Virus record (IMG/VR): IMGVR_UViG_3300044731_000783
Span: 1 to 63,770 of that record
From: a virus
Taxonomy: Duplodnaviria > Caudoviricetes
Length of the DNA: 63,770 nucleotides
Strand: one strand, 5' to 3'
Both the position numbers and the translations under genes were made by a program. The notes below the pieces were generated by a model that saw only the letters and a list, made by a program, of their open reading frames with translations, was not told the origin of the DNA and searched no databases. Of the stretch, positions 9,939 through 34,896 are shown one piece after another. How positions within the stretch are numbered: the first letter of the stretch is position 1; every line of letters starts with the position of its first letter.

Positions 9939-9969
9939 CAAAGATATAAATATTTTTTAATCTACCAAA
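9939..9969 (-). promoter_or_regulatory. Bacteroidota-type -33/-7 promoter
   Basis: TTTG-N19-TATCTTTG. Confidence 0.75.
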
Positions 9970-11659: not shown

Positions 11660-11689
11660 CCCATCAAAAAGAGAAAGTACATTCATCAT
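10805..11689 (-). CDS. DNA (cytosine-5)-methyltransferase, tandem paralogue
   Basis: LFDG, GSPCQ, LENV, QKRQR, GNGW. Confidence 0.95.
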   Translation of the reverse strand: MMNVLSLFDGMSCGQIALNRASIKYDKYFASEIDKHAITVTQNHYPDTIQLGSIVGLDTKNLPKIDLVIGGSPCQSFSRSGDNSGFDGKSGLFWEYIRVLNEVKPKYFLLENVVMKKEWEKIITDTIGFEPVMIDSKFFSAQKRQRLYWTNIPFDKNIEDKNINILDILESNGDEKIVDDNRIILDIKDNIFKIKNGTKIGYLFAKHGDCVNLEFPSSKNRRGRVSNGKTNTLNTACNYGVIVNNIMRELNILEYERLQTLPDNYTSLVSLNQRKKMIGNGWTVDVISHIFKGL

Positions 11690-13066: not shown

Positions 13067-13984
13067 CTAGATTAAATTTTTTATTCTTTTTTGTGTTAAA
13101 TCAAAATAATTCTTGTCTAATTCACAACCTATAAAATTTCTTTCATTATTAATACAAGAAATAGCAGTCGAACCTCCACCCATAAATGGGTCTAAAATTA
13201 TATCACCCTTATTTGAACATACATTGACTAATCTTTCTATCAATTTTAAAGGTTTTTCTGTTGGGTGAATTTTTTCTTCTTTTGGTATATAAAAATTTAT
13301 ATCATCAAAAACATCTGTTAATCCCATTGGTAGATTAAAAGTATAAACAATGTCTTCATATTTTGGTAAACCCCCAAATAAACTACTTAATTTATCCCAA
13401 TCCTCTTTAGTTGGTTCTTGTAATTTTTTTTGTTTTTTGCCAGCAATTGAAGACCATGTCCCACCACCATTAGTTGCCTTACCTAAAAAAGTATTAATTT
13501 CTTTTGCGTTTAAGCCCTTTTCATTTGCTTTTGATTGTAATAAGTCTCTAATATAATCATTACTATCTTTAACAAAATAATAAATATGTTCAGTAGTTGT
13601 TGGGAACATTTTTAATTTTGGGGATATCCTACCGGCCGCACTCTTCATTCCTTTCCAAATAACAATTTGTTGTCTAAATTTAAAACCATTTTCTTCTATT
13701 ATTGGTAATAAATTAGCTAATTGGTAACTGTAACCAAAAATAAAAAATGAAGCGCTTTTTTTTGTTATTCTAGATATTTCAACAATCCACTCTGAACACC
13801 AATTTTTATATTCATCAATTGTTTTCCATTGTTTATCCCATTCTTCATCAACAACACCCCAATATGGTGGATCTGTTATACAAGAGTCAACACACTCATC
13901 TGGTAAATTTTTTAAAAATTCAACACAATCTTGATTATATATTTTATTTAATTCTACGAATTGTTTTTCCTCTTTCTTTTCCAT
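13067..13984 (-). CDS. DNA amino-methyltransferase (N6-A/N4-C, beta class)
   Basis: N-terminal DPPY, HPTEKP, C-terminal ILDPFMGGGST. Confidence 0.93.
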   Translation of the reverse strand: MEKKEEKQFVELNKIYNQDCVEFLKNLPDECVDSCITDPPYWGVVDEEWDKQWKTIDEYKNWCSEWIVEISRITKKSASFFIFGYSYQLANLLPIIEENGFKFRQQIVIWKGMKSAAGRISPKLKMFPTTTEHIYYFVKDSNDYIRDLLQSKANEKGLNAKEINTFLGKATNGGGTWSSIAGKKQKKLQEPTKEDWDKLSSLFGGLPKYEDIVYTFNLPMGLTDVFDDINFYIPKEEKIHPTEKPLKLIERLVNVCSNKGDIILDPFMGGGSTAISCINNERNFIGCELDKNYFDLTQKRIKNLI

Positions 13985-19856: not shown

Positions 19857-20699
19857 TTGTGATTTTATATCCATTTGGAGTATTGCGTCAATTGTATTTT
19901 TATCAACTCTATACTCAACATATTCCCTATCTTCTGTTAGTCTCACAATAATACAACCAAGTAGTTTTATATCTTCATATTTGGACCCTTCAAGCATTTT
20001 AATAAGTAGCTTACCATAAAGTGGTAATTGTGTTTTATAGTGACCGAGCGCGTTATTTGGTAGGTACTGGAAAGGTGGTCTCATTGGTTTTATATACTTT
20101 TGGACAATGAAGTTTTTCTCCTGGTTTGTTTTCCAGTCTGTTATTAAAATACCAATTTCACCTTTTGTACTTATAATCAACCAAACCTTATCTGGTTGAC
20201 CGGTATATCCAAGTTCTGGATGTCCTAATACAATCTCCGTATCAAGTAAAACACAACCTCTTTGTTTTAATAATTCAATGTAATTTTTACCAGCAACAAT
20301 CATAGTGTCACTCACAACAAGTTGTTGCATATCACATTTAAATATTGGTTGTCTTACTTCTTTATTAATATTAAATTCTTTTAATACGTGTTCTTCCAAG
20401 AAATAATGAACACGAGAACCCATATTTGTTGATCTTACACCTTTTTCAGCCCATTCAGCTAAAAGTCGTTCAGTTTCTTCAGGATTACCTCCGGACATCT
20501 CATATGCTTTCTCTTCTGTTGGGAACTCATCATAAAAAAGTTTCATAACCTTTGATACAGATGGGAAATCAGTTCTCAAATTTCCGTCAATGTCCAACAT
20601 TGTATATTTATGGGCTTCTTCCTCAAATGTTAATTGTAGTTCTTCTCTTTTTCTATTTAAAATTTCTCTTATTTCTTCTGCTATTTTATTTAAATCCAT
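19836..20699 (-). CDS. PD-(D/E)XK exonuclease-like protein
   Basis: PSVS, GSRVH, TE, GQPD, TDWKT, QLPLY. Confidence 0.8.
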   Translation of the reverse strand: MDLNKIAEEIREILNRKREELQLTFEEEAHKYTMLDIDGNLRTDFPSVSKVMKLFYDEFPTEEKAYEMSGGNPEETERLLAEWAEKGVRSTNMGSRVHYFLEEHVLKEFNINKEVRQPIFKCDMQQLVVSDTMIVAGKNYIELLKQRGCVLLDTEIVLGHPELGYTGQPDKVWLIISTKGEIGILITDWKTNQEKNFIVQKYIKPMRPPFQYLPNNALGHYKTQLPLYGKLLIKMLEGSKYEDIKLLGCIIVRLTEDREYVEYRVDKNTIDAILQMDIKSQLTKLKK

Positions 20700-21604
20700 T
20701 AGTCTCTTATTTCATAATAATAATCATTTATTTGACCTTTTAAGTCACAAACATCCCTATCATTTGGGAGTCTTACAATTTTAACTTTACCCCACAGTTC
20801 ACCACCATTTAATTCGTGGTATAATCTTACAGCATTTTCCCAAGCATCACCATCAAGACAAATTATAACATTTCCTTTTGCATTATTGTAGATTGTTTCA
20901 AAAAGAAGTTCGGACATATGTTTTCCAAGCATCACAACCGGATTATCCAAAAACATCCCATCAAAAGCACCCTCAACCAAATATATATCCTTATTCCAAT
21001 CAATCAAATTTTCCCAAAATATAATTTGGTCTTTTTCAGCTTCCGGATTACGGTATTTGGCTCTACTATTAACATCCCAACTTCTCCCAACATAATAGTT
21101 GAGTTTACCGTTTTTATCATAAGATGGTATTACAATTCTTCCAGCGTGACTTCCTTTATCACAAAATCCAATACCAAACCTTTCAATTATTTCATCGGTT
21201 ATTCCACGACTTTTAAGGTAATTATATGCTTGTTTTCTAACCGGGTATATTGGGTGGGAATCTTTAAATAATGTGAAATTTTCCGGAAGAACTACTTTTG
21301 GTTTTTTTGTTTTTACAACTTTCTCTGTTTCATCCGGTCTTAAAATGTTGTATAGTTTTTTTTGTTTTTTGGTCCCAAATTTCCCAAACAACTTTCCTAA
21401 AGATCCATGAGTTCCTTCACTATCACCACAGGACCAACATTTATAAACGTCGTTGAAGTAATTTACCTCAAGATTGTGTTTATTTCTATCTTCGTCACAC
21501 ACCGGACAATTAAAAGAAATTTGACCACGATTTGGGTAATGTAATCCGTGGTCACCTAAAACTTCTTCTAATAATTCAACCAATGCTTCTGTTGTATCTT
21601 CCAT
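20699..21604 (-). CDS. DNA primase (DnaG-like)
   Basis: CPVC/CWSC zinc domain, YLKSRGI, RIVIP, KYRNP, TOPRIM VEGAFD and DGD. Confidence 0.92.
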   Translation of the reverse strand: MEDTTEALVELLEEVLGDHGLHYPNRGQISFNCPVCDEDRNKHNLEVNYFNDVYKCWSCGDSEGTHGSLGKLFGKFGTKKQKKLYNILRPDETEKVVKTKKPKVVLPENFTLFKDSHPIYPVRKQAYNYLKSRGITDEIIERFGIGFCDKGSHAGRIVIPSYDKNGKLNYYVGRSWDVNSRAKYRNPEAEKDQIIFWENLIDWNKDIYLVEGAFDGMFLDNPVVMLGKHMSELLFETIYNNAKGNVIICLDGDAWENAVRLYHELNGGELWGKVKIVRLPNDRDVCDLKGQINDYYYEIRD

Positions 21605-21640: not shown

Positions 21641-22157
21641 ATATTAATTTTTTACCGTTTCTTTTTGATTCATAAAAATCGGAAACATTAAGATAGTGCT
21701 TTAGAAATCTTTTATCTTCTATTTTATTTGCATCTATCGCAATATTTTCATCCTTGTGTTCACATTTTGAAACCATAATTGTTGACCAAATCCAAAGACT
21801 TTCATATAACCAGGTATTAACCATATAGTCATAATCCCAATTATATTTTTCACATTCTCTATGTACGTGTCTACCAATTTCAACAGTACCAATAACGTGA
21901 TCACCTAATTTTTTATTTGTTTCTTTTGATTTTTCAGTTCTAATTGCAAGACTTAATCCGGCTTGTGTTCCAATACCCATATATCCTAACCAACGATATG
22001 TGTCTAGTTTAAGGTCTGTTTCTGGTGTATCTAAATCTACAGCGGTTTTTAAATTAATTAAATGTCGTCTAAAAAACTTTTGATATTTTTCTTTATTTTC
22101 ATTCCAATAATGGTCTCTACGATTTTTATTAAAATACTCTTTAACGTCTAACCCCAT
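21633..22157 (-). CDS. Hypothetical accessory protein
   Basis: Start reassigned to ATG 22157 (MGLDVKEY), downstream of a TAnnTTTG element. Confidence 0.7.
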   Translation of the reverse strand: MGLDVKEYFNKNRRDHYWNENKEKYQKFFRRHLINLKTAVDLDTPETDLKLDTYRWLGYMGIGTQAGLSLAIRTEKSKETNKKLGDHVIGTVEIGRHVHRECEKYNWDYDYMVNTWLYESLWIWSTIMVSKCEHKDENIAIDANKIEDKRFLKHYLNVSDFYESKRNGKKLIFD

Positions 22158-22175
22158 AAATTTTAATTTTAAAAA

Positions 22176-22206
22176 CAAATATAAATAAAATATTTTAATT
22201 AAACAA
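22176..22206 (-). promoter_or_regulatory. Bacteroidota-type -33/-7 promoter
   Basis: TTG-N20-TATATTTG. Confidence 0.6.
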
Positions 22207-22243
22207 CTTCAAAAGATTTTTTTATTTTCTATATTTATTTTAT

Positions 22244-22465
22244 ATGGAAATAGATATTACAATTAATGACGTTACCGGTCAAACACCATATGACGTTTAC
22301 ATATGTGATACCGGTTCAACAACTTGTATATATGTTTCAACAATTAATACCGGTGACTTACCATACACATTTAGTGTTCCACCATTTTTTACAAACTTGG
22401 ACCGGTTTAATTTAAGAATAATAGATGACAATAATTGTCAAATTAATGAAATTTTATTAACATAA
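22244..22465 (+). CDS. Small beta-rich Cys-containing putative virion protein
   Basis: Paralogue of 34597..34893; TATTTAT at 22232-22238. Confidence 0.7.
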   Translation: MEIDITINDVTGQTPYDVYICDTGSTTCIYVSTINTGDLPYTFSVPPFFTNLDRFNLRIIDDNNCQINEILLT

Positions 22466-23505
22466 TGGCCTGTATTACATCAACATTTTGCGTATCAACT
22501 AATGTCTACCCCTACGATGGTGAGTATGATGTTGCCGGTACCTATAATTCCGAAGATTATTTTACAGGTGGTTCTTATTTTATATATTTTTCCACAATAG
22601 AAAATAGATGGTGTTTATCGGATTCGTTAGGAGGTACTTGTTATCAGTTTGGTCCAACCGGATTATTTTCAAGTTGTCCGGATTTAGATGAATCTTTTTT
22701 CTCTTCTGGAGCTTGTCCAACAACAACCACAACCACAACCTCACCTTGTGATGTTTTTGATTTTGAGGCGATTTTTGATTGTTTGGTCCCAACAACCACA
22801 ACCACAACTTCAACATCAACAACCACAACAACCACAACAATACCACCTTTTAATCCTTGTTCTGGTGTTTCAGTTAATGTTTCAATAAAAACATACACAA
22901 CAACAACCACAACTATTTTACCAACAACAACAACGACCACAACTATTAATCGTCCTTGTAATTTTGACGGTAATGCGCAATTCAATATATTTGATGAATA
23001 TATGAGATGTGGTAATAGTAAGAAATTCAGAGATTGTTTAACTGGTATTGACTATTACTCATCAGATGTAGTTTTATCACCAGTTGGTGTTTCGCCAACA
23101 CAAGGATATGTTTATAAAGCAGATGTTAATGGTGTTTCAGTTTGTATTACATTTGTTGGGCTTGTTGAAACTACAAGTGGTGTTGATAATATCAATTTAA
23201 TAGAAGAAATTGGTCTGGAAAATGAAGGCGGTTGTCTTGAATGTTTGCCGGATCCACCACCAACAACTACCACAACATCTACCTCAACAACAACCACAAC
23301 AACAATACCACCGTGTATTTTATCCGAATATTTGATAACAAATAATAATTTCTTACCAGCTGAGTTTAGATATACTGATTGTGATGGTAATACAATTAAC
23401 GACTTGTTACCTGGTAATTATGGAAATAAAACGGTTTGTTCACCAACAATTCCAATTGTTTTTGGTAATGCAACAATACAAGATACTGGATTTATTTGTA
23501 ATTAA
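22465..23505 (+). CDS. Cys-rich putative virion protein with poly-Thr tracts
   Basis: Four Thr runs separating Cys-rich modules. Confidence 0.75.
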   Translation: MACITSTFCVSTNVYPYDGEYDVAGTYNSEDYFTGGSYFIYFSTIENRWCLSDSLGGTCYQFGPTGLFSSCPDLDESFFSSGACPTTTTTTTSPCDVFDFEAIFDCLVPTTTTTTSTSTTTTTTTIPPFNPCSGVSVNVSIKTYTTTTTTILPTTTTTTTINRPCNFDGNAQFNIFDEYMRCGNSKKFRDCLTGIDYYSSDVVLSPVGVSPTQGYVYKADVNGVSVCITFVGLVETTSGVDNINLIEEIGLENEGGCLECLPDPPPTTTTTSTSTTTTTTIPPCILSEYLITNNNFLPAEFRYTDCDGNTINDLLPGNYGNKTVCSPTIPIVFGNATIQDTGFICN

Positions 23506-23510
23506 AAAAA

Positions 23511-23534
23511 AATATCGTCTAAAAAGACGATATT
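23511..23534. terminator. Terminator hairpin between convergent genes
   Basis: AATATCGTCT-AAAA-AGACGATATT, 10-bp stem next to an A-run; second weaker hairpin at 23541-23560. Confidence 0.75.
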
Positions 23535-23560
23535 TCAAATTATCGGTATTTTAAACGATA

Positions 23561-24169
23561 TTATTTCCAAATCTCTTTTGACCTCATATAACCCAGAGCA
23601 CAAGTATAAGCATCAGTCTGGTCAAAATTTTCTTTTTTAAGAGTGTTGTTTTTTGTATAGTGCCAAGTAATTTGGGGTTCTCTTTTTGCAACTTTTTCCC
23701 AAATTAACATTTTCTTATCAATGTCTTTTGGTAAGCCACCAAATAAAACGTACTTACCTTTATCGTTTTCTTGAACAAGGTCTGGCCAAGCATACTTTCT
23801 TGAATTGTATGTTGAGATAAACTCTGGTACTATACCTAAAATATTATAGATTTCTTTAAACACAAAACTATTAAATCTTAATAAAGTTTGTATTGTGTAT
23901 ACATTATTTGAATTTAAAAGTGGTTCTTCGATTATAACTTTAACTATACCGAGATTTAAATATTGTTTTAATTTTTCAGCAAATATTTCAGATTTCAATA
24001 ATAATTCTTTTATTTTATCATCTTCATCTTTACCCATTTTTGGTCTTGGCGAAATGTGCGTAAGTTCTAATAGCTCTTGTGATTGAATGTCAAATAAGGC
24101 CCAACCAATTGTTTTGGTTGAAATGTCTAATCCCAAAACTTTTGGTGAGTTTTTAATTTGTTTTCCCAT
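23561..24169 (-). CDS. RuvC-like Holliday junction resolvase
   Basis: VLGLDISTKTIGWA, IIEE, DQTDAY. Confidence 0.8.
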   Translation of the reverse strand: MGKQIKNSPKVLGLDISTKTIGWALFDIQSQELLELTHISPRPKMGKDEDDKIKELLLKSEIFAEKLKQYLNLGIVKVIIEEPLLNSNNVYTIQTLLRFNSFVFKEIYNILGIVPEFISTYNSRKYAWPDLVQENDKGKYVLFGGLPKDIDKKMLIWEKVAKREPQITWHYTKNNTLKKENFDQTDAYTCALGYMRSKEIWK

Positions 24170-24218
24170 AAAATTTCTTTTATTTAGAAAATAAACAATG
24201 TTAATAAAAATTAAAGTT

Positions 24219-26717
24219 TTAGAAATCTATTTTTACAACATATTGTTGGATTCCTTGTCTTAATGTTGGTGATTGTAGTTTAGACATAACAAGGACATCT
24301 TTATTATCATCAAGTAAAGCAATTTCAGTAATGTATGATTTTGTTCCACCACTCCAAGATGGATTTGTTGACACCTGAAATTCACTAGAACTTAAATTTA
24401 TTTTATATTTCATCTCATAAATTGTTGCTTGTATGTCTGTTTCAAATGCACCATAAAAATAATACTCGTCACCAAAATTAAGTTTTTTTCCAGTTGTGTT
24501 ATTTGGTGTTAATGGTATATAATCATTTAAATTATAGTATGGAGCAATATCATAATTGTCTGGTGATATTATAAATGTAGTTCCAGTTAATGATGACTGT
24601 GTAACATATCCATTATTAAAATTGTTACTAATTTGACTTGTAAAATCAATTAATCTCCATTGAGTTGGGTCTGGTCTTTCACCTGTATTTACTTTTTGTG
24701 CTAATATTTGGAATGTATCGGCGTAATAACCAAATGGTAAATCACAAGTTGGACAATAAATACTTGTTGTAGTTGTTGTTACCGGATAAAAAGTTGTAGT
24801 TGTTGTTGTATAAGGAAATGTTGTTGTGGTTGTTGTTGGCGAACTTCCTGGTTGTACCAAACAATTAAAATCACCCCCAAATCTTACAGCAACATTCTTT
24901 GATACCTCTGGGTTACACTCATTATTATTACCAACAATGTATGGATAATAATTACAATGTAGTGAATTTGTAAATCCAAATTTGTTTGATAAACGATATG
25001 TTATAAACATAGTTTGACTGTTTCCAGTAATAATACCTTGTGATGTTGTTGTTGTATCACAAGTATTTGGTGTGATTAAAGAAAGTTGTGGTGCTGGTAA
25101 TGTCCAGTTTCTATTTGCTTTATATGACATTGCCGCAATAATTTCTTCATCATCAATTATAATCATTTTACTATCCGGAAAAACTTTACCAACTCTACTT
25201 GGTATTCCATCAACATTTGGGTTTGTATCCCATAAATGATAATACCTAATTCCAGGTTGGTTCATATCTTCGTTCTTTTTTGATTTGATAAAATGAACTT
25301 GGAATAATTCTTTATCTTCAAAACCTGGAGGATCGACCCAAAATGTTTGTCCAAAACAACAATCTGGATTTTTATGCCACATTAACCAAGGAATGTGTAA
25401 TTTAAAATTTCGTGCTTGACCGGTCGTATCTGTTGGGTTTGTTGGGTTATAGGGTTGTAATGCAAATTTTTCACCATAAAAGAAATCTATTGTTTGGTTT
25501 GTGTAGTGAATAATTGCAATTGCTTTTTGTTCTTCCGGTTTAACTTGTACTATCTCACCAAAAGAATTGTTATAATAAGTCATACTTGTATCTGTTTGAC
25601 CCTTACTTGAGTTGTAACCAAAATATTCTTTAGTTCCAATGTAATCTACGGATCCAAATTTCGTGTAGTCTTCATATAGGTTTGATATTAATCCGGCAGG
25701 ATTTTCAGTCCAAGGAATATTCATATTCCAAACTTTTACATCAAATTGATCGGTATCACAAATAGATTCAAAATCAATAACTTGTTCACCCCAATGTGGC
25801 ATCGGTGTTACACTATCATATATTTGTTTCATATTTGATGGATAAATAATTACCCTAGAATAACAATTTAACTGAAAATATGTGAAATCTGGTGTTGGTC
25901 TATCTAGTGTTATTGTGTTTAAACAAACATCAACAATTCGATATGTTAAAATTGTATAACAACTATTTGCCGGCATAAAACATTCTGGTTCCGGAGGCAA
26001 TGGACACTGTGGACTAGGTGTTGGTGTAAAACAAGGTGTCTTACTTGGTGTGGGTGTTGGTGTAGGACTAGCACAAGGATCTGTTGGGTTAATAGTTGTT
26101 GTCGATGTTGTAGTTGTAGTACCAGTTGGTGTTGGTGTTGGTAATGGAACATTTACACATTCATAATTATATTTTGCTCTACCATCATAATATATTGTTA
26201 TAATATCACCAATCTGTGGTTTTGATTCATTAACATTACTATTACCTGAATAAATTAACTCAATTTTATTTGACCCATTTAATGTTGACATATCAACAAT
26301 ATAGTTTGGGCTTACAACATATTTGTTACCAACTAATACATCCCAATTTATTGTTGTTGCTGTTGTATTACCGGTAAAAAAACCTCTAAGTGGTGCTCTA
26401 TTAAAAACCGGTTCAATTACAGAATCCATAAATGGAATACCATAAGTGTTTGACTGATTTGAGTCGGCATAGTACGGATATTTAATATATTGTTTGTTTG
26501 ATTCTGGAACGCCACTTGAGTTTTGACTATTAAACTGTGGTTCCAAAACCATACTATTTGACTGATTGTAAGTTGATGATACTTTATCATAAGAAACTTC
26601 ACTATCTCCAACTTGGAAATATGAAATTTTAAAATTACCTTGTGATAATTTTTGTCTTCCTGTATCTGTAACTCTTGTACTTACAAGTCCTGATGTATTT
26701 TTAAGTATATATGCCAT
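24219..26717 (-). CDS. Putative baseplate/tail-fibre attachment protein with PT and poly-Thr linkers
   Basis: N-terminal TDTGRQKL...FQVGDSE and C-terminal YITEIALLDD...SKLQSP recall tail-collar/fibre attachment domains. Confidence 0.6.
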   Translation of the reverse strand: MAYILKNTSGLVSTRVTDTGRQKLSQGNFKISYFQVGDSEVSYDKVSSTYNQSNSMVLEPQFNSQNSSGVPESNKQYIKYPYYADSNQSNTYGIPFMDSVIEPVFNRAPLRGFFTGNTTATTINWDVLVGNKYVVSPNYIVDMSTLNGSNKIELIYSGNSNVNESKPQIGDIITIYYDGRAKYNYECVNVPLPTPTPTGTTTTTSTTTINPTDPCASPTPTPTPSKTPCFTPTPSPQCPLPPEPECFMPANSCYTILTYRIVDVCLNTITLDRPTPDFTYFQLNCYSRVIIYPSNMKQIYDSVTPMPHWGEQVIDFESICDTDQFDVKVWNMNIPWTENPAGLISNLYEDYTKFGSVDYIGTKEYFGYNSSKGQTDTSMTYYNNSFGEIVQVKPEEQKAIAIIHYTNQTIDFFYGEKFALQPYNPTNPTDTTGQARNFKLHIPWLMWHKNPDCCFGQTFWVDPPGFEDKELFQVHFIKSKKNEDMNQPGIRYYHLWDTNPNVDGIPSRVGKVFPDSKMIIIDDEEIIAAMSYKANRNWTLPAPQLSLITPNTCDTTTTSQGIITGNSQTMFITYRLSNKFGFTNSLHCNYYPYIVGNNNECNPEVSKNVAVRFGGDFNCLVQPGSSPTTTTTTFPYTTTTTTFYPVTTTTTSIYCPTCDLPFGYYADTFQILAQKVNTGERPDPTQWRLIDFTSQISNNFNNGYVTQSSLTGTTFIISPDNYDIAPYYNLNDYIPLTPNNTTGKKLNFGDEYYFYGAFETDIQATIYEMKYKINLSSSEFQVSTNPSWSGGTKSYITEIALLDDNKDVLVMSKLQSPTLRQGIQQYVVKIDF

Positions 26718-26736
26718 TATTTAATAAATATATCAT

Positions 26737-28989
26737 TTATATTTTTGATATTGAAATCTCCGTTTTAGGGTTTTGTATTTTAACCGGACAACAATCACAA
26801 TTAATAACTTTAGCGTTTGTTATAAACATTTGATAATTTTTACTAGCAGAACTACAAGGACCTATTGGCTGATTCACTAATAAATTTGTAAACGAACCGG
26901 TTATTGTTTGTCCATAAGTTAATGTAAAAGTGTTTTTATATTCTTTCTGACTGTTACTTTTAATAATTGGTGAATTTGAGCAAGGTAAACTGATTACAGA
27001 AGTTGTATTTGTTGTGTTAATTTGAGTTAATGTTCCAAAACCATTAACTGTTACTAAATTGTTATATTGTGGTTGTGGATTTAGATTTGATGGATAATAA
27101 TTTAAAATACTAATATGGTTAAGATCAAATTCTATTGAGTAACCTGGTTGTAAATTTGAGCCAATAATAAATGTATTATTATTTGTATTTGCTGATAGTG
27201 CAATACCAAATGCTGGGACTTGTTGTACTTGTATAACAACTGTTTGGATTGATATTGTCCCATTTGAATCTTTTACAAAGACAACATAAGTTCCTGCCTG
27301 TAGATTTTGGAATATTGGGTTAGGTGAATATGTTATACCATTATCAATTGAGTATTCATAAACTCCGGAACCACCATAAGCCTGTATTATAATACTACCA
27401 TCATTTTTACATTTAGCCGCATTTGTTGTTACATTAAAACCAACAATATTATTAACACTACAATCACCACTTAACACTGTTAAACTATAAACTTCTGGTG
27501 CTCCAAGTACTTGCCAACCAGTTAGTGGTGGTATTGATGTTGTATTATTTACAATTGTCGCATAACTTGATGGATAACCAGATAAAACCCAATTATTTGT
27601 ATTTCCTGTCGACCAATAAATATTGTATTGTGAATCATTAGATAACCAATTTGGTTTACCATTAAAATAATCGTTATATTCCAATTGGACTTGAGTTGTT
27701 TGGAAAGGTTCTGTACTACTACCACTTCTTAATGTAAAAATTACACATAAATTACCGTATGTTAATATTGGTTTAATTGTTGTTGTAGATGTTGTTGTAG
27801 TAGTTTCACCAGTTAAAACACAAGTTGTGTTTATTATAAAATCACCATAATAATCTGTAACTGTTGCTGTATATTCACCAACATTTAAATTTGTAATTAC
27901 AGGTGCAACACTTCCAATACCCCAAACAATCTCATATGGTGGAGTACCACCAGTTATTGATAATGATGCTTCACCATCATAAGAATAAGGTGTTGATGGG
28001 TGTGTTACAATACAATCAACACCCATTGGGAATATTGTAAGTACATCACATTCATTTCTTGGTTCTATTGTTATTGCTGGTGGTTGTGGACAATCACCAT
28101 TAACACATAAGCCACCTAATTTTATAGCAAATGGTCTTCTTATATTAAAAATTGGTCTTACTAAACTACAAATGCTTGTTGTTTGACCGGTTGGTAAATA
28201 AACCTCTAATAAGTTATAATCACAATCAACATATGTTGTTAAAAAAGGTTCTGAAGGTGTTTTAAAAGTATAACATTCACAATTACAAGTTTCTGCACTA
28301 GAAACAATTGTAAACTCATACTCTGTTGAGCAATCAATAATACCTAAATCTTTAACTAAAAATGGTGTTGTTGGTGTTTCTGGTGATGGTAGATCAATAT
28401 CAATATAAACAAATGTATCAACATAACCTGATAAACTATTATCAGTTGATGTTATCATTTTATAACCACCGTCACAACTTAATAAACCATAACATTGTTT
28501 CAAACAAGGGTGTTTTTGAACACATTGTTCACAACCAAATTCTTCATATTTTTCAAAGCCATTTATTACTGGAACATAATTACTTGTTGGTGGTGGTAAA
28601 ACTTTTGATATTGTTTTATTAAAAACAGTAATACATTGTAAATCAATAATTTCACCAGTTTCACTTTTAATATATTCTAAACCATATATAGCATCGTCTA
28701 TTGATAGTATTTTTTCATTACCATATATTGTATAAACTTCACTACTCTCACAACAAGAACTAAAACTATATGTAGAATTTGGTTTAAAAAAATCACTAAA
28801 CTTTAAATCTTCAATTGTGTTACCACTAAATGGGTAAGTATTACAAAAATTTATAAACGATGTTGTACCGGATTCTATAAATATTGTTATGGTATTACCA
28901 GAACAATCAACAAAAATTAAATCATTTTCTGTTGATCCGGTATTTGTAACAATCGCTACCCTACAATTGGTTAAACAAGTTCCTGCCAT
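26737..28989 (-). CDS. Cys-rich putative virion protein with SprB-like repeats
   Basis: DGEASLSITGGTPPYEIVW, DGSIIIQAYGGSGVYEYS, NLQAGTYVVFVKD; poly-Thr linker. Confidence 0.65.
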   Translation of the reverse strand: MAGTCLTNCRVAIVTNTGSTENDLIFVDCSGNTITIFIESGTTSFINFCNTYPFSGNTIEDLKFSDFFKPNSTYSFSSCCESSEVYTIYGNEKILSIDDAIYGLEYIKSETGEIIDLQCITVFNKTISKVLPPPTSNYVPVINGFEKYEEFGCEQCVQKHPCLKQCYGLLSCDGGYKMITSTDNSLSGYVDTFVYIDIDLPSPETPTTPFLVKDLGIIDCSTEYEFTIVSSAETCNCECYTFKTPSEPFLTTYVDCDYNLLEVYLPTGQTTSICSLVRPIFNIRRPFAIKLGGLCVNGDCPQPPAITIEPRNECDVLTIFPMGVDCIVTHPSTPYSYDGEASLSITGGTPPYEIVWGIGSVAPVITNLNVGEYTATVTDYYGDFIINTTCVLTGETTTTTSTTTIKPILTYGNLCVIFTLRSGSSTEPFQTTQVQLEYNDYFNGKPNWLSNDSQYNIYWSTGNTNNWVLSGYPSSYATIVNNTTSIPPLTGWQVLGAPEVYSLTVLSGDCSVNNIVGFNVTTNAAKCKNDGSIIIQAYGGSGVYEYSIDNGITYSPNPIFQNLQAGTYVVFVKDSNGTISIQTVVIQVQQVPAFGIALSANTNNNTFIIGSNLQPGYSIEFDLNHISILNYYPSNLNPQPQYNNLVTVNGFGTLTQINTTNTTSVISLPCSNSPIIKSNSQKEYKNTFTLTYGQTITGSFTNLLVNQPIGPCSSASKNYQMFITNAKVINCDCCPVKIQNPKTEISISKI

Positions 28990-29004
28990 TTAATTAATAA
29001 ATAA

Positions 29005-29985
29005 TCAAATATTTGTTTTTTTAATGTATGATTTCATAACATCAATATATTTTATTGTTGAGCTGTTTTTATCAACATAATCAAAATGATTTTTATCTTG
29101 TCGTAATTTTTCAATTGGGTCAACACTAATATATTCACCTTTGTAAAATTTTGTTAATTTCAAGTCGTCTGTGACTCCAGCCATATGAAGTATTGGTTTT
29201 TGTTCATAAATTTTAATATCGTCTGTAGCCCAAGAAAATGCCAACTCTTCTGATATTTTTGTTTGTACGTTTTTTTTCCATAAATTCCATAATAATGACC
29301 ACATTTCCGCTGTCCAAAATTGTATTTGGCCTGGATTAATTGGGTATCTTCTTTGGTAGTCCAACATCTGATTATAGAGTGGTGTACAATCTTCATATAT
29401 TTTATTCCAAAGTTTATAATTAGTATTTTTTATAAGATATTGTCCTCCACCTGAATTTTCTTGGTTGTCCTTTATTTTATTTACATCAATACCAACAACG
29501 TCGGCCATTTCTTCAATTAGTTGTCCTTTTCTTGAGTTTGGGTGTCTTTTCTCATATCTATCACAACAATCCATAATATAGTTGTAACCAATGTAACCAA
29601 TTGTGTCGGATAAATATGACACATCATCATTTAATAATTTTTCAAAATCTGGTAATTCCCTAAATATAATATCAGCATCATGTAAAAAAATTACTTTACC
29701 TAATTCTGGTTTTTCTTCTAATAATTTAGAAATTAAATATGGTTTTATACTTGGAATATATGATTTTTTATCTCTATTATCTTCGTAAAAATGAATATTA
29801 ATTCCTAATTTTTTTAATTCTAGTGCACCTTCAGATGGTTCTTTAACGCCGTGAACTAATGCTAAAATTACGTGAATTTGATTTGGGTCAATTCCTTTTT
29901 CTATAAAATTGTGAACATATAGTTTAATTTGCCAATGAAAATACGGAACATCCGGTTGTGCTGTTACAAATACAATATCTTTCAT
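29005..29985 (-). CDS. GT-A fold glycosyltransferase resembling protein O-glycosyltransferases (GT95/GT96-like)
   Basis: YFHWQ, YIPSIKP, FLHDADIIFR (DxD), WTAEMW, PILH. Confidence 0.65.
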   Translation of the reverse strand: MKDIVFVTAQPDVPYFHWQIKLYVHNFIEKGIDPNQIHVILALVHGVKEPSEGALELKKLGINIHFYEDNRDKKSYIPSIKPYLISKLLEEKPELGKVIFLHDADIIFRELPDFEKLLNDDVSYLSDTIGYIGYNYIMDCCDRYEKRHPNSRKGQLIEEMADVVGIDVNKIKDNQENSGGGQYLIKNTNYKLWNKIYEDCTPLYNQMLDYQRRYPINPGQIQFWTAEMWSLLWNLWKKNVQTKISEELAFSWATDDIKIYEQKPILHMAGVTDDLKLTKFYKGEYISVDPIEKLRQDKNHFDYVDKNSSTIKYIDVMKSYIKKTNI

Positions 29986-30030
29986 ATTGAAAATATATTC
30001 GTAAAAGTAAAAAAGTGAATTTAATATATC

Positions 30031-31251
30031 TTATATATAATACAATACCTCCGCAGTACCTAAAAATGTTGCTGTGTTGCTTAGTGGTGTTATACACACC
30101 CACATTTCGTCAAGTGTTCCGTTAACATTAGAACCAACCCTAATTTGATTATCATCCACTTTAACGTCAGTAACAGCCGTTGTTCCAGCTTGACCAATTA
30201 ATGATGTCATAATGTGTCCTGGTGATGTTATTGTTGTTGTGACAGTCCCGTTATATACTGAATACTGAAATGGTGAATTTGGTATGTCAGTCCAACTTGG
30301 GGTTACGGATAATGTAGGGTTAAATTCAATGGTTAGTAAGAAATTATCGTTTGAGGTGTTTAAAATGGATAAACTACTATATTGTGATGTCACTGATTTA
30401 TAACTTTCTTTAAGCCTATAACCAATATACGGATATTTTGTACCTGAAGTTCCTAAATTTGCGGTTGTTGAGTTTTGAACACCAACGGTTGAATAAAGTC
30501 CGTTTAACGCTCCTTCGGTTGATACTTGACTACATAACATATCAAAGTATCCTGAACCAACACCTACTTGTCTTATTTCATACCTAATTGGTTGATTTGG
30601 TGATGACATGTAAACGGTAGGTATATTATTTGCCGCAGTATAGTCTAAAAAATAAAATGTTTGACCCGATAATACCATTCCAAACCTCATCCTACCAACA
30701 CCTAACCATTGATAATCTACTGTCATTAGATTTGTGTTACTCCAATCAAAATTGTTTACGTCAAAGTCTGTATTATTCCAAGTTGTTGTATCGGCACTAT
30801 AAGTGCAAGAACCACTTAAATAAATGTTAAATGTTATAGCACTTGTTACACCATTACTTTCTAAAAAGAACCCGTCAAATACCGAATTGTACGTGGATGC
30901 CGTTGTTGATGTGAAACATCCAATTCGTTTAATTATATTTGTTTCTATTTGGAAGTTTGAAAAACTACCTTCAAATAGTTGACTTTTACCTGGTTGATAA
31001 ATTGGGTGTGTTTTAGTTTGTCTAATAACCAAATCATTATTTGCTGATGTTGACATTCTAACTCTTGCATATTGTTGGTTAAAAACTGATGTTGCAGTAC
31101 CTGCGGTTACTTCATTAACCTGTAAAGGATTTTTATCGTAAACGTGTTTAATGTCTAATAAATTTTGAACCGCTGCGGTTCTTAGTCTACCGAAAGCGTC
31201 CATATTTGGTCCGTCCGCGTACTTTATTGAGTTGTTAAAAATAAATGACAT
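30031..31251 (-). CDS. Putative virion structural protein (beta-rich)
   Basis: DAFGRLR N-terminal motif, YQPGKSQ, DYQWLGVG; structural cluster. Confidence 0.6.
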   Translation of the reverse strand: MSFIFNNSIKYADGPNMDAFGRLRTAAVQNLLDIKHVYDKNPLQVNEVTAGTATSVFNQQYARVRMSTSANNDLVIRQTKTHPIYQPGKSQLFEGSFSNFQIETNIIKRIGCFTSTTASTYNSVFDGFFLESNGVTSAITFNIYLSGSCTYSADTTTWNNTDFDVNNFDWSNTNLMTVDYQWLGVGRMRFGMVLSGQTFYFLDYTAANNIPTVYMSSPNQPIRYEIRQVGVGSGYFDMLCSQVSTEGALNGLYSTVGVQNSTTANLGTSGTKYPYIGYRLKESYKSVTSQYSSLSILNTSNDNFLLTIEFNPTLSVTPSWTDIPNSPFQYSVYNGTVTTTITSPGHIMTSLIGQAGTTAVTDVKVDDNQIRVGSNVNGTLDEMWVCITPLSNTATFLGTAEVLYYI

Positions 31252-31255
31252 AATA

Positions 31256-34200
31256 TTAAATTAAATACCAATTTCCGTTTCTCACCATAATGGTAAGAGA
31301 CATATAGTTTATATTCATATCAACATATGAATTTCCGTCAATCAAACCCGATGCCGGTGTTAATCTTATTCTAAAAAACCCGGAAGTTCCGGCTTCGTCT
31401 TTTATGACTAAATAATACCCGTCTCTTGACGTTGTTGTTGGTAATGTTAAATCAACATTTGATGATCCACTAACACCCCAATATACTTTATCCCAAGTTA
31501 AGGTTTGTGAGGATGTTATAGCACTTGTTGAGTAGTTTGCTGATTGAGAAATATCTCTTGTTTTTAAAATACCTGTTGATGTGTCTCTAACCAAGAAATT
31601 GTTATTAGTACTATCTGTTTCTGGCGTATTTTGTAATGCCAAATAATTTACGTGGAATGTACAAGCTGATACCGATACAACATCTTTACCATATGTTGCC
31701 GACATTATGTGATTAACCGTATTTCCACTACCACCTAAAATTGTTCCGAAATTAGAAATTGATGTGTTATTTATACCGCCTAATATTGATGAACCATTAC
31801 CAAATGCCGAATTACATCTACCACCGCCAATAAAATTACAAAGACCTATGGCTCTATTTGAAACTCCCCCAACTACGCTTGAGTGTGCTCCACATGTTGT
31901 ATTGCATTGCCCACCACCAATAAATGTGTAGTCACATCTTGTTGTATTATTTTGACCGTTACCTATAATTGAATAACAACCGGAAGTTGTATTTAATTTC
32001 CCATTGTTTACAGTACTAAAACAATCAACAGCAGTATTCCTATCACCATTATTAATAAATGAATACACACCAGATGTGGTATTACAATTACCATTATTAA
32101 TTGATGATTTAAAACCTAATACTGTATTATAAGTGCCGTTATTTACAGTTGTAAAATTTGTACACAATGCTTTATTAAATGCCCCATTATTAATAGTCGT
32201 CCAAGTAAGGTTTGCTGTATTACAAGTACCGTTATTTACAGTTGAGTAACCACCAGATGCGGTATTATTAAAACCATTACCAATAAACGAATATTGCCCA
32301 GTTGTTGTATTACCACAACCATCTCCAATTATCGAATAACAAGCATTTACCGTATTTCCAGAACCACCAATTATCATTGAGTAATTACAATTTGATTTAT
32401 TTATAGTTCCACTACCAATAAATGAATAATTACCATTTGACGTATTTTGACAACCACCAACAATTACAGAATATGTTTGTTGTGTTTTATTTTGGGTACC
32501 ACCACCAATAGTTGAGCCAAAACCATTTGTTGTGTTTTGATTTCCACCATTAATTGATGAGTAAAAATCTAAAGCGGTATTTGAATCACCTCCAGTAACA
32601 ACTGAAGATGAGTTTGCACTAACGTTAAGTCTACCTCCACCAACAAATGAACCATAGGCTGAACTAGTATTACGTTGCCCCCCACTAATTGTTGAGCTAT
32701 AACCACTTGATGTGTTACATACTCCACCACTTACAGTTACTGAATTATTATTTGTTGTGTTACAAGAACCACCACCAATAACAGAACTATCACCTAACGA
32801 CGTGTTAAGTATACCACCACTAATAACTGAAACATAACCACTTGATTTGTTACAAAGACCTCCACCAATTGTTGCATAATTGGCAGAGGCTGTATTACTA
32901 CCACCACCAGCAACTGTAGATCCACTACCAAAAGACCAATTATTAGTGCCACCACCAATTGTTCCATAAATAAAATTTGTCGTGTTACAATAACCACCAC
33001 TTATTGTTCCATAATCAGAACTATATAAAACACTATTATAATACCCACCCCCAATTACAGCACCACCACAACAATATAAACTATTTGTTAATAATATTTT
33101 ATTTTGAAGTCCTCCATTAATTGTTGAGTAACTTCCAGATGATGTTGTATTAACAATTAATTCAACACCATCATTAAGATTTAAAGAGCCAAAACAAGTA
33201 TTATCAAAAAATAATTTATCGCCATTTTGATAATTAAGACCTTTATTATTTATATATACATTACTTAATGTCCCTATTGGATTAAAATAAAAACTAAATG
33301 TACCATTTGTTCCATAAAGTGAGTCTGTTGATGTTGGCCCAAATGGACCATAATACCCACTAATAGTTGAACCAGTCCAATTGCAACTTGAAAATCCACC
33401 TATAAGTCCAGGTACACCAATTGTGTTTGCCTGACCGGCACCAATTATTGAACCAAACCCAAATGTTCTATTTATACTACCACCACCAATAAACGAATAA
33501 CAACCACAACTGGTATTATCAAGACCACCGGTTACAACAGAATACTTACATTGGACGTGATTAGCACCTCCACCACCGATAAACGATCTACCAGCTACTG
33601 TAGCATTACTATTTCCTTTACCACCAACAATTATAGTGTACGGACTACTTACAAAATTATTTTCTCCACCACCGATGAATGAATATAATCCGCTTGCAGT
33701 ATTGTTATGACCACCACTTACGGTTGATATGTAACCACTTGACGTGTTGCAAAGTCCGCCACCAATTGTTGAAAAATTACCATTTGATGTGTTACGTCGT
33801 CCACCACTTACGGTTGAATCTTGACCACTTGATGTGTTACAAAAACCACCACTTACGGTTGAATAATCACAGCTTGATGTGTTATTTAAACCACCACCTA
33901 TTGTTGAACCTTGACCACTTGTTGTATTACAATATCCACCACTTAATGTTGAGTAGTTTCCACTTGATGTGTTTTGACGACCGCCACCAATAAATGAATA
34001 ACCTTTAGTTGATGTGTTACAAAAACCACCGCTTATTGTTGAATAATCATTGGATACTGTATTATAACTTCCACCACCGATAAAATTACCATAACCTTGT
34101 TCTACAGTATTTGAAAGTCCGCCAACAATTGCAGATCTAGTTGTTGTTAAATCTTTAATAATATTACATTCTCCACCACCAATAAAAGAACCGCTTTGTT

Positions 34201-34564
34201 CTGAAATATTAAAATTCCCACCACCAATAAACGACCCAGGTCCAGAAGTTGTGTTAAAATACCCTCCACCAACAAATGAATAAAATCCACTTGCCGTATT
34301 TCCAGTACCTCCACCAACAAGTGAATAAATACCACTTGCGTCAGCATTAACACCAACTCTTTGTGTTGAGTAATTTCCGGATCCAGTTTCATACAATTGT
34401 GTTGCACCTGTAAAACCAGAAAAAATTGCATCAGATACTTGTTGTATTGTTGCTTTATATGATGATCCTGCCGGATTTTGAGAAGTATCACCAGTTATCA
34501 CAATATGAATTAAATCTTGTAATGTTACTCCGGTTGCTAATGTTCTATCGGTAAGAAATCCCAT
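31256..34564 (-). CDS. Tail fibre/adhesin-like protein with 15-aa Gly-rich solenoid repeats
   Basis: Dozens of (S/T)I(G/S)GGxxNTxSGxY repeats; C-terminal LTLP...IKDEAG...IDG fibre-like domain. Confidence 0.75.
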   Translation of the reverse strand: MGFLTDRTLATGVTLQDLIHIVITGDTSQNPAGSSYKATIQQVSDAIFSGFTGATQLYETGSGNYSTQRVGVNADASGIYSLVGGGTGNTASGFYSFVGGGYFNTTSGPGSFIGGGNFNISEQSGSFIGGGECNIIKDLTTTRSAIVGGLSNTVEQGYGNFIGGGSYNTVSNDYSTISGGFCNTSTKGYSFIGGGRQNTSSGNYSTLSGGYCNTTSGQGSTIGGGLNNTSSCDYSTVSGGFCNTSSGQDSTVSGGRRNTSNGNFSTIGGGLCNTSSGYISTVSGGHNNTASGLYSFIGGGENNFVSSPYTIIVGGKGNSNATVAGRSFIGGGGANHVQCKYSVVTGGLDNTSCGCYSFIGGGSINRTFGFGSIIGAGQANTIGVPGLIGGFSSCNWTGSTISGYYGPFGPTSTDSLYGTNGTFSFYFNPIGTLSNVYINNKGLNYQNGDKLFFDNTCFGSLNLNDGVELIVNTTSSGSYSTINGGLQNKILLTNSLYCCGGAVIGGGYYNSVLYSSDYGTISGGYCNTTNFIYGTIGGGTNNWSFGSGSTVAGGGSNTASANYATIGGGLCNKSSGYVSVISGGILNTSLGDSSVIGGGSCNTTNNNSVTVSGGVCNTSSGYSSTISGGQRNTSSAYGSFVGGGRLNVSANSSSVVTGGDSNTALDFYSSINGGNQNTTNGFGSTIGGGTQNKTQQTYSVIVGGCQNTSNGNYSFIGSGTINKSNCNYSMIIGGSGNTVNACYSIIGDGCGNTTTGQYSFIGNGFNNTASGGYSTVNNGTCNTANLTWTTINNGAFNKALCTNFTTVNNGTYNTVLGFKSSINNGNCNTTSGVYSFINNGDRNTAVDCFSTVNNGKLNTTSGCYSIIGNGQNNTTRCDYTFIGGGQCNTTCGAHSSVVGGVSNRAIGLCNFIGGGRCNSAFGNGSSILGGINNTSISNFGTILGGSGNTVNHIMSATYGKDVVSVSACTFHVNYLALQNTPETDSTNNNFLVRDTSTGILKTRDISQSANYSTSAITSSQTLTWDKVYWGVSGSSNVDLTLPTTTSRDGYYLVIKDEAGTSGFFRIRLTPASGLIDGNSYVDMNINYMSLTIMVRNGNWYLI
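33711..34050. repeat. 45-bp-period coding tandem repeats
   Basis: ccaccacttacggttga at 33711, 33801, 33846, with diverged copies in register. Confidence 0.85.
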
Positions 34565-34596
34565 TTATCTTTTATTTATAAATACATTAACTTTTA

Positions 34597-34893
34597 TTAT
34601 TGGAATTGATAAATTTCGTAATCCATAAAGAAGAAATCATCTCCGTCTTGGTATTGTTTTTCAACTGTCCCTTCATCAATACAAATTAATGTTGTTAATT
34701 TTTCACAACCAGTAGAATCAATTAATTTTAAACCAATTGCTGGTGCCATATCAAATTGACTTGGTAATGTTATTGTTATTGGTGTTGTTGTTATTTCACC
34801 AATATAAACACACTGATTTCCATAAACATCACAAGCAAACCCACTAAAAGGTGGTATAAGACCAACAATAGAATTTATAATTACTTGTGTCAT
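34597..34893 (-). CDS. Small beta-rich Cys-containing putative virion protein
   Basis: Shares G-x(2-3)-P-(Y/F)...CD...C(I/V)Y...P...ID..(N/G)C pattern with 22244..22465. Confidence 0.7.
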   Translation of the reverse strand: MTQVIINSIVGLIPPFSGFACDVYGNQCVYIGEITTTPITITLPSQFDMAPAIGLKLIDSTGCEKLTTLICIDEGTVEKQYQDGDDFFFMDYEIYQFQ

Positions 34894-34896
34894 TTT

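Follow-up and report, generated by a model that had tools for sequence, protein, structure and literature searches.

A phage glycosyltransferase family remotely related to HPAT and genomically coupled to poly-Thr tracts: a candidate system for O-glycosylation of phage structural proteins

The window analyzed here, i.e. the whole 63,770-bp stretch that makes up the entire IMG/VR virus record IMGVR_UViG_3300044731_000783 (Duplodnaviria; Caudoviricetes), encodes in the open reading frame (ORF) 29005-29985 of the minus strand a member of phrog_4417, a family listed as of 'unknown function'. With a probability of roughly 70%, we regard this protein as a soluble, metal-dependent glycosyltransferase (GT) of the GT-A fold, predicted to be catalytically active and to O-glycosylate poly-Thr tracts of phage structural proteins in the cytoplasm, with Thr as the presumed acceptor. 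The core of this prediction, a phage protein O-glycosyltransferase for Thr-rich virion tracts, was already proposed in a first-pass annotation of the sequence, and it is supported by the GT-A fold and by the co-occurrence with poly-Thr, which is seen in both search directions. Our results thus support a variant form of phage virion glycosylation whose hallmarks would be a GT-A family, related to HPAT and so far unannotated, and poly-Thr tracts as the putative acceptors; this would give the 'unknown function' family a specific role and a simple substrate sequence signature. The GT and its candidate acceptors in the window are as follows:

29005-29985, minus strand: stand-alone GT-A glycosyltransferase, phrog_4417, 326 aa; DxD motif D103/D105, putative metal-binding His H267
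26737-28989, minus strand: 750-aa Cys-rich candidate acceptor, whose gene begins 15 nt after that of the GT; poly-Thr at residues 396-404 (window 27778-27804)
24219-26717, minus strand: 832-aa candidate acceptor; Pro-Thr (PT)/poly-Thr linker at residues 193-225 (window 26043-26141) and three Thr runs at residues 625-652 (window 24762-24845)
22465-23505, plus strand: 346-aa candidate acceptor, encoded on the opposite strand; five poly-Thr tracts (window 22717-22944 and 23254-23304)

The GT exhibits, just as described in the first-pass annotation, five motifs in the order YFHWQ (residues 15-19), YIPSIKP (76-82), LHDADIIFR (101-109), WTAEMW (224-229) and PILH (264-267). In an alignment of 56 homologs with a mean column identity of 33%, Y76, D105, W224 and H267 are invariant, while Y15, W18, Q19, D103, M228 and W229 are conserved in at least 90% of the sequences; thus, the motifs coincide with the columns of highest conservation and are not chance strings. 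The retention of the DxD aspartates and the His residue across so divergent a family argues for retained catalysis, and D103-x-D105 with H267 fit the usual metal site of GT-A enzymes, the role in metal binding being a prediction. The ORF matches phrog_4417 nearly from end to end (E-value 2.1e-69, residues 6-319 on positions 3-290 of the 293-column profile). No model in Pfam or NCBIfam matches it, and NCBIfam contains no model for gp51 of phage phiFL1A or for the HPAT-like ORF described below. The phrog_4417 family comprises 1201 proteins in a set clustered at 90% identity and 820 representatives at 50% clustering.

The AlphaFold (AF2) model of the GT, calculated from an alignment of 56 diverse homologs, reveals a single Rossmann-like α/β/α domain of the GT-A fold (predicted local distance difference test (pLDDT) score: 97.3; predicted template modelling score (pTM): 0.93). 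A structure-neighbour search of 48,161 PDB representatives, independent of Foldseek, reported 105 chains at Z ≥8, the top 23 rows being all glycosyltransferases and the neighbours with Z 13-16 spanning residues 1-326. Among the top solved structures, enzymes acting on proteins or glycoproteins prevail, with LgtC and WbbM interleaved (glycogenin-1, Z: 15.7; Skp1 glucoside alpha-galactosyltransferase, Z: 14.6; LgtC, Z: 14.2; the catalytic domain of UGGT, Z: 13.9; WbbM, Z: 13.6; GlyE from the pneumococcal serine-rich-repeat adhesin pathway, Z: 13.5; the PBCV-1 capsid glycosyltransferase A64R, Z: 11.3), and there is no DNA glycosyltransferase among the 50 best; in this respect the fold agrees with the protein-directed function proposed earlier. 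Foldseek found 442 PDB matches at E ≤0.001, led by UGGT (E-value 5e-7), GTA/GTB and glycogenin. In a library of viral folds the closest structures are uncharacterized phage proteins (template modelling (TM) score: 0.87), followed by Orf49 of Lactobacillus phage LP65 (TM: 0.71) and, after it, by GT8-like enzymes of giant viruses. The similarity to the GT8-type neighbours is structural only, with 8-12% identity in the structural alignments; none of the 56 family members matches Pfam Glyco_transf_8 at E ≤1, and phmmer and hmmsearch comparisons of the GT and the family profile with the sequences of solved structures yielded nothing meaningful. Judging from the model, the fold neighbours suggest a retaining mechanism, which would set the anomeric outcome of the reaction.

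Profile comparisons identified the relationship of phrog_4417 to the hydroxyproline O-arabinosyltransferase (HPAT) family (PF23452), which we take to be family GT95 of CAZy. In the ESM-Atlas cluster of proteins resembling the GT, 10% of the members carry PF23452. A PF23452 search of four genomes that hold phrog_4417 members reported a single 290-aa ORF (L368:1327-2196) at 25.7 bits (cut-off 23.9), which is collinear with the GT family profile (E-value 8.6e-9 among 15 ORFs) and has 74 relatives, most of them with a precomputed PF23452 assignment. The hhalign comparison of the GT family with 25 bacterial proteins, most of which bear PF23452, gave a probability of 93.3% and an E-value of 2.6e-7 over 249 columns. 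The motifs are in register: PYxxWQ, followed by Y.P...P in the GT family versus Y..NR. on the HPAT-bearing side, hDsDIIF versus LDpDxVFR, W.AdMW versus WESDM.A, PI.H versus PIIHY and fYKg.Y versus WYKQ.Y, and the columns of D103, D105 and H267 correspond to D108/D110 and H231 in the HPAT-bearing proteins. The similarity to GT95 enzymes, which the first-pass annotation had proposed, therefore holds at the level of profiles, and by sequence phrog_4417 is a remote relative of HPAT, not a member of it by the Pfam threshold.

Some relatives of L368:1327-2196 (proteins P0328-P0344) are fusions of an HPAT-family domain with a PqqD domain (PF05402), a peptide-recognition element of pathways for ribosomally synthesized and post-translationally modified peptides (RiPPs). 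This suggests that they form an uncharacterized class of peptide-glycosylating RiPP enzymes. Among 18 fused members of the phrog_4417 family that we scanned, eight have matches to an additional GT domain (PF11397 GlcNAc, found in six proteins, in two of them along with O-FucT; Glyco_transf_7C in two; GT6 in one) and three have F5/8 type C matches; the second GT domains indicate that the family lives in glycan-building enzymes. We also observed that chromosomes of Chitinophaga, Pedobacter and Mucilaginibacter (L293, L305, L313, L331 and similar loci) encode two-domain forms of ~580 aa, in which the family is joined to a Glyco_transf_7C-type domain. These Bacteroidota proteins have no poly-Thr neighbours, and their acceptor may differ from that of the phage forms.

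Among the 55 ORFs tabulated in the window, tracts of poly-Thr or PT (runs of at least six residues from the set [TSP] with at least four Thr) occur in three only, and these are exactly the proteins that had been described as Thr-rich and Cys-rich from the sequence alone: 22465-23505 on the plus strand (5 tracts; 19.4% Thr, 5.5% Cys), 24219-26717 on the minus strand (4 tracts; 11.9% Thr, 2.0% Cys) and 26737-28989, also on the minus strand (1 tract; 11.9% Thr, 4.1% Cys). The 832-aa protein bears a PTPTPT/SPTPTPTPS linker and shows 59-79% identity to 22 relatives, the linkers being its variable parts; its AF2 model from a 23-sequence alignment is unusable (pLDDT 40.6), and a search of the Atlas returned unnamed, virus-only clusters alone. 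The 750-aa protein shows a weak match to the SprB repeat, below threshold (E-value 0.0014), and the poly-Thr ORF on the opposite strand recurs at the equivalent place in many related loci. Neither the GT (maximum KD19: 0.85) nor any of the three Thr-rich proteins contains a hydrophobic segment; all four thus look soluble and cytoplasmic, which fits a modification in the cytoplasm.

The GT, the 750-aa and the 832-aa genes constitute the downstream end of a string of virion genes on one strand, which includes a baseplate-J-like gene (51238-53076), a gene for a 1981-aa protein and two matches to virion structural proteins (34897-37110 and 30031-31251). The second of these matches is the immediate neighbour of the GT gene and places it inside the virion gene string, as the first-pass annotation had it:

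30031-31251, minus strand: virion structural protein, phrog_1645 (E-value 1.6e-48), upstream neighbour of the GT gene

Analysis of the genomic neighborhood revealed a strong link between the GT family and Thr-rich genes, whichever of the two is used as the starting point. For the search from the Thr side, IMG/VR stretches were picked only for the presence of at least 10 consecutive Thr codons (118 stretches, ~1.0 Mb), and 82 of them hold an in-frame ORF with a T8+ run. A GT of the family is found in 8 of these 82 loci, in each case encoded by the gene that immediately follows the T8+ ORF on its strand. Identities are 32-57% among these eight GTs and 32-37% with the GT of the window. Of the partner proteins, most lack homology to one another, and two have a major-tail-protein domain at their start. 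A search of the 118 loci with the HPAT profile gave no match. In the 80 IMG/VR loci closest to the window, the order of the GT, a 440-760-aa protein and an 820-1080-aa protein is kept, and 67 of the 70 informative loci of this lineage contain an ORF with a T5+ run within 3 kb of the GT.

The tblastn search with the GT of the window detected the family in 77 of 50,697 records of cultured phages, whose hosts include Lactobacillus, Enterococcus, Staphylococcus, Lactococcus, Clostridium, Chryseobacterium, Arcanobacterium and others; an organism tally of the 77 records found no Mycobacterium phages. In all eight cultured lineages examined (phiFL1A, iLp84, VPE25, Chryseobacterium MA9V-3, phiCTP1, Staphylococcus SA2, Lactobacillus Semele and Arcanobacterium TPWB06) the GT is located in the virion module next to proteins that bear poly-Thr. 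The GT gene directly follows the tail-tube gene in phiFL1A, phiCTP1, SA2 and TPWB06. In iLp84 it separates the head genes from the head-tail adaptor, and in VPE25 it is flanked by unannotated upstream genes on one side and by genes for the neck and tail on the other; in Semele it comes after a small ORF with 44% Thr, and in MA9V-3 after two ORFs with windows of 20 Ser/Thr in 20 residues. Typically, the poly-Thr runs make up the C-terminal 10-25 residues of tail-tube and major head proteins: such tails on the tail tube or the capsid adjoin the GT in phiFL1A, iLp84, VPE25, phiCTP1, SA2 and TPWB06, and poly-Thr is also present in the portal protein (phiCTP1) and in the assembly protease/scaffold (SA2, TPWB06). 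As a separate observation, a short ORF in another frame overlaps the 3' end of the tail-tube gene in SA2 (L167:9661-9924) and in TPWB06 (L169:9714-9920; 68 aa, 53% Thr). The arrangement looks like a programmed-frameshift extension of the tail tube, comparable to gp17.1* of SPP1, that would add a long poly-Thr arm directly upstream of the GT.

Homologs of the phiFL1A tail-tube protein (37-60% identity) are found in Streptococcus prophages, Lactobacillus phage phiJL-1, Pediococcus phage cIP1 and SPP1-like Bacillus phages. Six such homologous loci contain, within the fetched locus, neither a GT nor an ORF with a T5+ run, and their capsid and tail-tube proteins stop where the poly-Thr tails of phiFL1A start, the longest Thr run being 2-3 residues in these relatives versus 7 in phiFL1A. 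As an example, the capsid protein has '...PEGVVEATIEA...' and a short Ala/Gly/Pro tail where the GT is absent, whereas that of phiFL1A ends with '...PEGVVEATISGE' and a 20-residue Thr-rich tail.

A contrast is also seen between two forms of the family in bacterial genomes, where 80 loci were retrieved with the family profile and proteins shorter than 400 aa were counted as stand-alone. An ORF with a T5+ run lies on the same strand within 300 nt of 26 of the 38 stand-alone forms (28 within 3 kb), versus 2 of the 42 fused forms (3 within 3 kb). When all 249 GT-bearing loci were grouped by single linkage at 50% identity, poly-Thr was found within 3 kb in 7 of the 7 informative stand-alone clusters and in 2 of the 14 fused ones (Fisher's exact test, P-value 3e-4). 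Thus, the GT is genomically coupled to poly-Thr across unrelated phages and unrelated partner proteins.

The gap between the GT gene and the gene for the 750-aa protein is 15 nt, and that between the 750-aa and 832-aa genes is 19 nt; no terminator-like site was found between the three genes on their strand, so the three proteins are probably made together, late, in the cytoplasm. A strong hairpin further downstream probably marks where the transcription unit of the GT stops. The elements considered here are:

29992-30020, minus strand: conserved upstream element, ATTCACTTT (30012-30020) ... TATATT (29992-29997), within the 45 nt preceding the start codon of the GT gene
23561-24169, minus strand: RuvC-like gene, phrog_159/827
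23509-23536, minus strand: terminator-like hairpin with a 12-bp stem and a T run, between the RuvC-like gene and the convergent ORF 22465-23505 (plus strand)
61467-62147: glycosyltransferase of family 2 (GT2), PF00535, E-value 7.6e-10

The sequence TTCACT-N16-TATATT is indeed present upstream of the GT gene (30019-29992, minus strand), and the first-pass annotation had taken it for a private promoter from which the GT would be made before its substrates. However, sigma-70-like sites are no commoner in the region than expected by chance (83 versus 77.9 +/- 8.6 in shuffled sequences), which leaves no reason to suppose that GT synthesis precedes that of its substrates, and the short gaps without an intervening terminator argue in the same direction. 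We have therefore dropped the idea of early synthesis and the reading as a sigma-70 promoter, and retained only the conservation of the element among relatives: ATTCA.T ... TA..TTT is kept in at least 80% of the 39 distinct upstream sequences taken from relatives, in variable surroundings, and the element has a single sense-strand copy in the window. The element, especially ATTCACTTT, may be a real signal, perhaps for a sigma factor of the phage itself. The window also encodes a phage sigma-70-family factor with regions 1.2, 2 and 4 (11686-12486, minus strand), which could read phage-specific promoters such as the ATTCACTTT element.

The GT2 gene, which had been suggested to encode an enzyme extending the glycans, is confirmed as a GT2 by its PF00535 match, but nothing ties it to glycan extension. 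It lies among genes for RecA-like, C5-methylase, exonuclease and gp32-like proteins, and with these replication and methylase neighbours an action on DNA or on the envelope is no less likely than glycan extension.

In the mechanism that we envisage, the enzyme would bind an NDP-sugar as the donor through the metal site formed by the DxD motif and the His residue, and would move the sugar onto the Thr hydroxyls of disordered runs in the cytoplasm of the infected cell. The poly-Thr tracts would be disordered tails or linkers on phage structural proteins, and the acceptors in this phage would be the 750-aa and 832-aa proteins encoded directly downstream and the 346-aa protein from the opposite strand. 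The resulting particle would carry mucin-like, sugar-coated spacers, with the glycan possibly extended in those lineages that possess fused or additional GT domains. Any benefit to the phage, such as rigidity, shielding, protease resistance, solubility or adhesion, is a matter of speculation. We lean slightly towards a broader form of this prediction, namely that phrog_4417 is a general 'glyco-tag' system, in which a short Thr run, added to the end of or placed within any exposed virion protein (capsid, tail tube, portal or fibre), suffices as a substrate for a single soluble HPAT-like transferase. If so, mucin-like coats would be expected on phages of Bacillota (among them Enterococcus and Staphylococcus phages under study for therapy), Bacteroidota and Actinomycetota and on abundant aquatic jumbo phages, and the plant extensin-type glycosyltransferases and the phage family would share an ancient ancestry in the glycosylation of protein hydroxyl groups.

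A number of observations weigh against O-glycosylation of poly-Thr virion tracts by the GT. LgtC and WbbM, enzymes of lipo-oligosaccharide and O-antigen synthesis, are within ~2 Z units of the best structural neighbour, so close that the fold by itself leaves the acceptor class unfixed. In the direct scan with Pfam HPAT the GT of the window stays below the gathering threshold, with no match at E ≤1; two of the 56 family members give weak matches (best E-value 0.09), and none of 10 further homologs matches. No GT was found in 74 of the 82 poly-Thr loci, which are short (median 9.2 kb), and in the window's own lineage the run is in the immediately adjacent ORF in 31 of the 70 informative loci. 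No T5+ ORF was detected within 3 kb of 39 of the 42 fused bacterial forms and 10 of the 38 stand-alone ones, of which 4 have full flanks and 6 are covered for less than 1500 nt upstream. Owing to shared ancestry among the cultured lineages and the clusters, the counts lack full independence. Searches of PHROG and Pfam gave no above-threshold match that would mark the three Thr-rich proteins of the window as virion proteins, and tblastn of the 832-aa and 750-aa proteins against cultured phages found no match. Therefore, of the structural cluster described earlier, the place of the GT in the virion string stands, while virion membership of the three Thr-rich proteins is judged from gene position alone and is the weaker part of the case.

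The best-surviving alternative, although in our opinion an unlikely one, is that the GT acts on a non-protein acceptor (host lipo-oligosaccharide, O-antigen, teichoic acid or capsule precursor) or on phage DNA, and that it neighbors Thr-rich genes due to inheritance as a module or because the Thr-rich proteins bind that glycan. LgtC (Z: 14.2) and WbbM (Z: 13.6) among the top structural neighbours and the scarcity of poly-Thr around the fused bacterial homologs would agree with this, as would the several DNA methylases and the separate GT2 of the window, which indicate that DNA modification is active in this phage. On the other hand, the GT is found in virion modules of both lytic and temperate phages, not in lysogenic-conversion or replication loci; it adjoins non-homologous partners, in both gene orders; and its absence from relatives goes along with the loss of poly-Thr tails from otherwise homologous proteins. 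The absence of DNA glycosyltransferases from the 50 best structural neighbours, and remote homologs that are HPAT-family proteins, some of them fused to PqqD, likewise speak for a protein acceptor.

It is less probable still that the poly-Thr tracts serve simply as flexible linkers, with the GT-like protein acting on other sites or, without any catalysis, as an assembly factor or a minor structural protein; the association would then arise only because heavily decorated virions tend to have both traits. Multi-domain extracellular proteins often contain Thr/Pro linkers, and the phiFL2B homolog is labelled 'major tail protein' in one record, perhaps by a slip of annotation. However, DxD and His stay invariant or nearly so at a mean column identity of 33%, it is to Thr runs specifically that the GT is coupled (the next gene in 8 of the 8 reverse-scan loci), and the tails on homologous capsid and tail-tube proteins come and go with the GT.

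Marginally the least probable is glycosylation of poly-Thr proteins outside the virion, either released at lysis or intracellular: the three Thr-rich proteins of the window have no structural-protein match, and the 346-aa gene lies on the opposite strand beside the RuvC-like gene and a primase-like gene (20699-21604, a candidate from its translation, without a family match), but the 750-aa and 832-aa genes continue the baseplate/fibre-like/virion structural string with no terminator-like site, and the annotated partners in cultured relatives are always capsid, tail tube, portal or scaffold/protease.

To our knowledge, glycosylated phage particles have been documented so far in mycobacteriophages. 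The GTs of these phages are said, in the work of Freeman et al. 2023 (Cell Host Microbe), to place glycans on C-terminal extensions of capsid and tail-tube subunits, and the abstract of that paper reportedly gives few indications that this occurs among phages at large. The system predicted here resembles the mycobacteriophage one in that the GT is phage-encoded and that capsid and tail-tube proteins carry tails, here of poly-Thr, in Enterococcus, Lactobacillus, Staphylococcus, Clostridium and Arcanobacterium phages. It differs in the enzyme family (with no Mycobacterium phage among the 77 records), in the homopolymeric Thr run as the presumed acceptor, in the hosts, which are Bacillota, Bacteroidota and others, and in being known from genes alone; furthermore, the tracts of the window are not C-terminal tails but internal linkers of large proteins, and the virion status of the three Thr-rich proteins is positional. 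Mycobacteriophage virion O-glycosylation is cited in passages of PMC12619734 and PMC10877033. The literature available to us, which is thin on subscription journals, contained no description tying phrog_4417, HPAT-like enzymes or poly-Thr tails to phage glycosylation, and our results suggest that virions coated with sugars occur far beyond the mycobacteriophage case.

Plant HPAT enzymes and peptidyl-Ser alpha-galactosyltransferase (presumably GT96 of CAZy) attach sugar to side-chain hydroxyl groups in repetitive, proline-rich proteins, the HPAT enzymes with hydroxyproline as the acceptor and UDP-L-arabinofuranose as the donor. The GT family shares with HPAT the YxxWQ, DxD, W..(D/E)M and PI.H motifs, as aligned with the PF23452-bearing bacterial proteins; unlike the plant enzymes, the GT of the window is below the Pfam threshold and soluble, without a membrane anchor, and its presumed acceptor is Thr rather than hydroxyproline or Ser. 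To the GT8-type enzymes glycogenin, Gat1 (the Skp1 galactosyltransferase) and GlyE it is similar in structure (Z 13.5-15.7 over ~210-230 residues) and in the DxD and His metal site. Several of these neighbours act on proteins or protein-bound glycans, and GlyE, which decorates a Ser-rich repeat adhesin, provides a close functional analogy; the differences are the 8-12% identity, the lack of a Pfam Glyco_transf_8 match and a retaining mechanism that is here only suggested by the model. A64R of chlorovirus PBCV-1 (Z: 11.3) is likewise a virus-encoded, cytoplasmic GT-A enzyme for virion-protein glycosylation independent of host secretion, as we predict for the GT of the window. However, chlorovirus capsid glycans are N-linked and atypical and belong to viruses of eukaryotes, and PBCV-1 and the giant viruses are not known to have a poly-Thr acceptor. 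Finally, the PTPTPT linker of the 832-aa protein resembles the Pro/Thr linkers of secreted bacterial and fungal glycoside hydrolases, which are O-glycosylated and thereby protected from proteolysis; those linkers are secreted and modified by membrane-bound or secretory-pathway enzymes, in contrast to the proposed cytoplasmic phage enzyme.

If the prediction is correct, virion masses, cryo-EM densities and antigenicity of Enterococcus, Staphylococcus, Lactobacillus and Clostridium phages would have to be read anew, with a bearing on antibody recognition and stability of therapeutic phages, and the poly-Thr linkers of abundant aquatic jumbo phages would be explained. The enzyme and its tag would also make a compact pair for glyco-engineering in the bacterial cytoplasm. 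Cultured, tractable GT-positive phages exist.

The completeness of the window was estimated by CheckV as 22%, which indicates that it is a piece of a jumbo tailed phage of ~290 kb. Copies of its GT gene with 70-73% identity are carried by contigs of 270-308 kb. The G+C content is ~30%, and almost all genes are on the minus strand. One group of genes is for replication, with a DnaB-like helicase, a class II ribonucleotide reductase, a 5'-3' exonuclease, and gp32-like and RecA-like proteins. The megablast search of the region 22000-35000 against cultured phages found no match, and a search for RNA sequencing runs listed none. In the virion string, ORF 31256-34564 (minus strand) encodes a 1102-aa Gly/Ser/Asn-repeat protein without a family match, which consists almost entirely of degenerate ~18-residue repeats (G-G-x-x-N-T-x-S-G-x-x-S-x-I/V-G/S-G-G) and is probably a beta-helical fibre or spike.

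ORF 534-1469 (minus strand) encodes a full-length DnaJ homolog with the J domain, the CXXCXGXG zinc domain and the C-terminal domain. According to PMC12619734, the 'moraphages' infect Bacteroidota, have jumbo genomes reaching 307 kb and possess DnaJ homologs as well as four core orthogroups of glycosyltransferases. The jumbo size and the DnaJ gene fit this account, and the window may belong to the moraphages. Four DNA methyltransferases (three C5-cytosine and one N6/N4) are encoded on the minus strand at 9957-10808, 10805-11689, 59434-60456 and 13067-13984. One of the C5 enzymes is two genes away from the GT2 at 61467-62147, an arrangement reminiscent of the methylase-plus-glycosyltransferase clusters for DNA hypermodification outlined in a preprint (bioRxiv 10.1101/2023.12.21.572611). 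A GT copy 70% identical to that of the window was also found on a 5.3-kb contig (L288) filed in a metagenome-assembled genome of Woesearchaeota; the contig is most likely a mis-binned piece of a phage from the lineage of the window.

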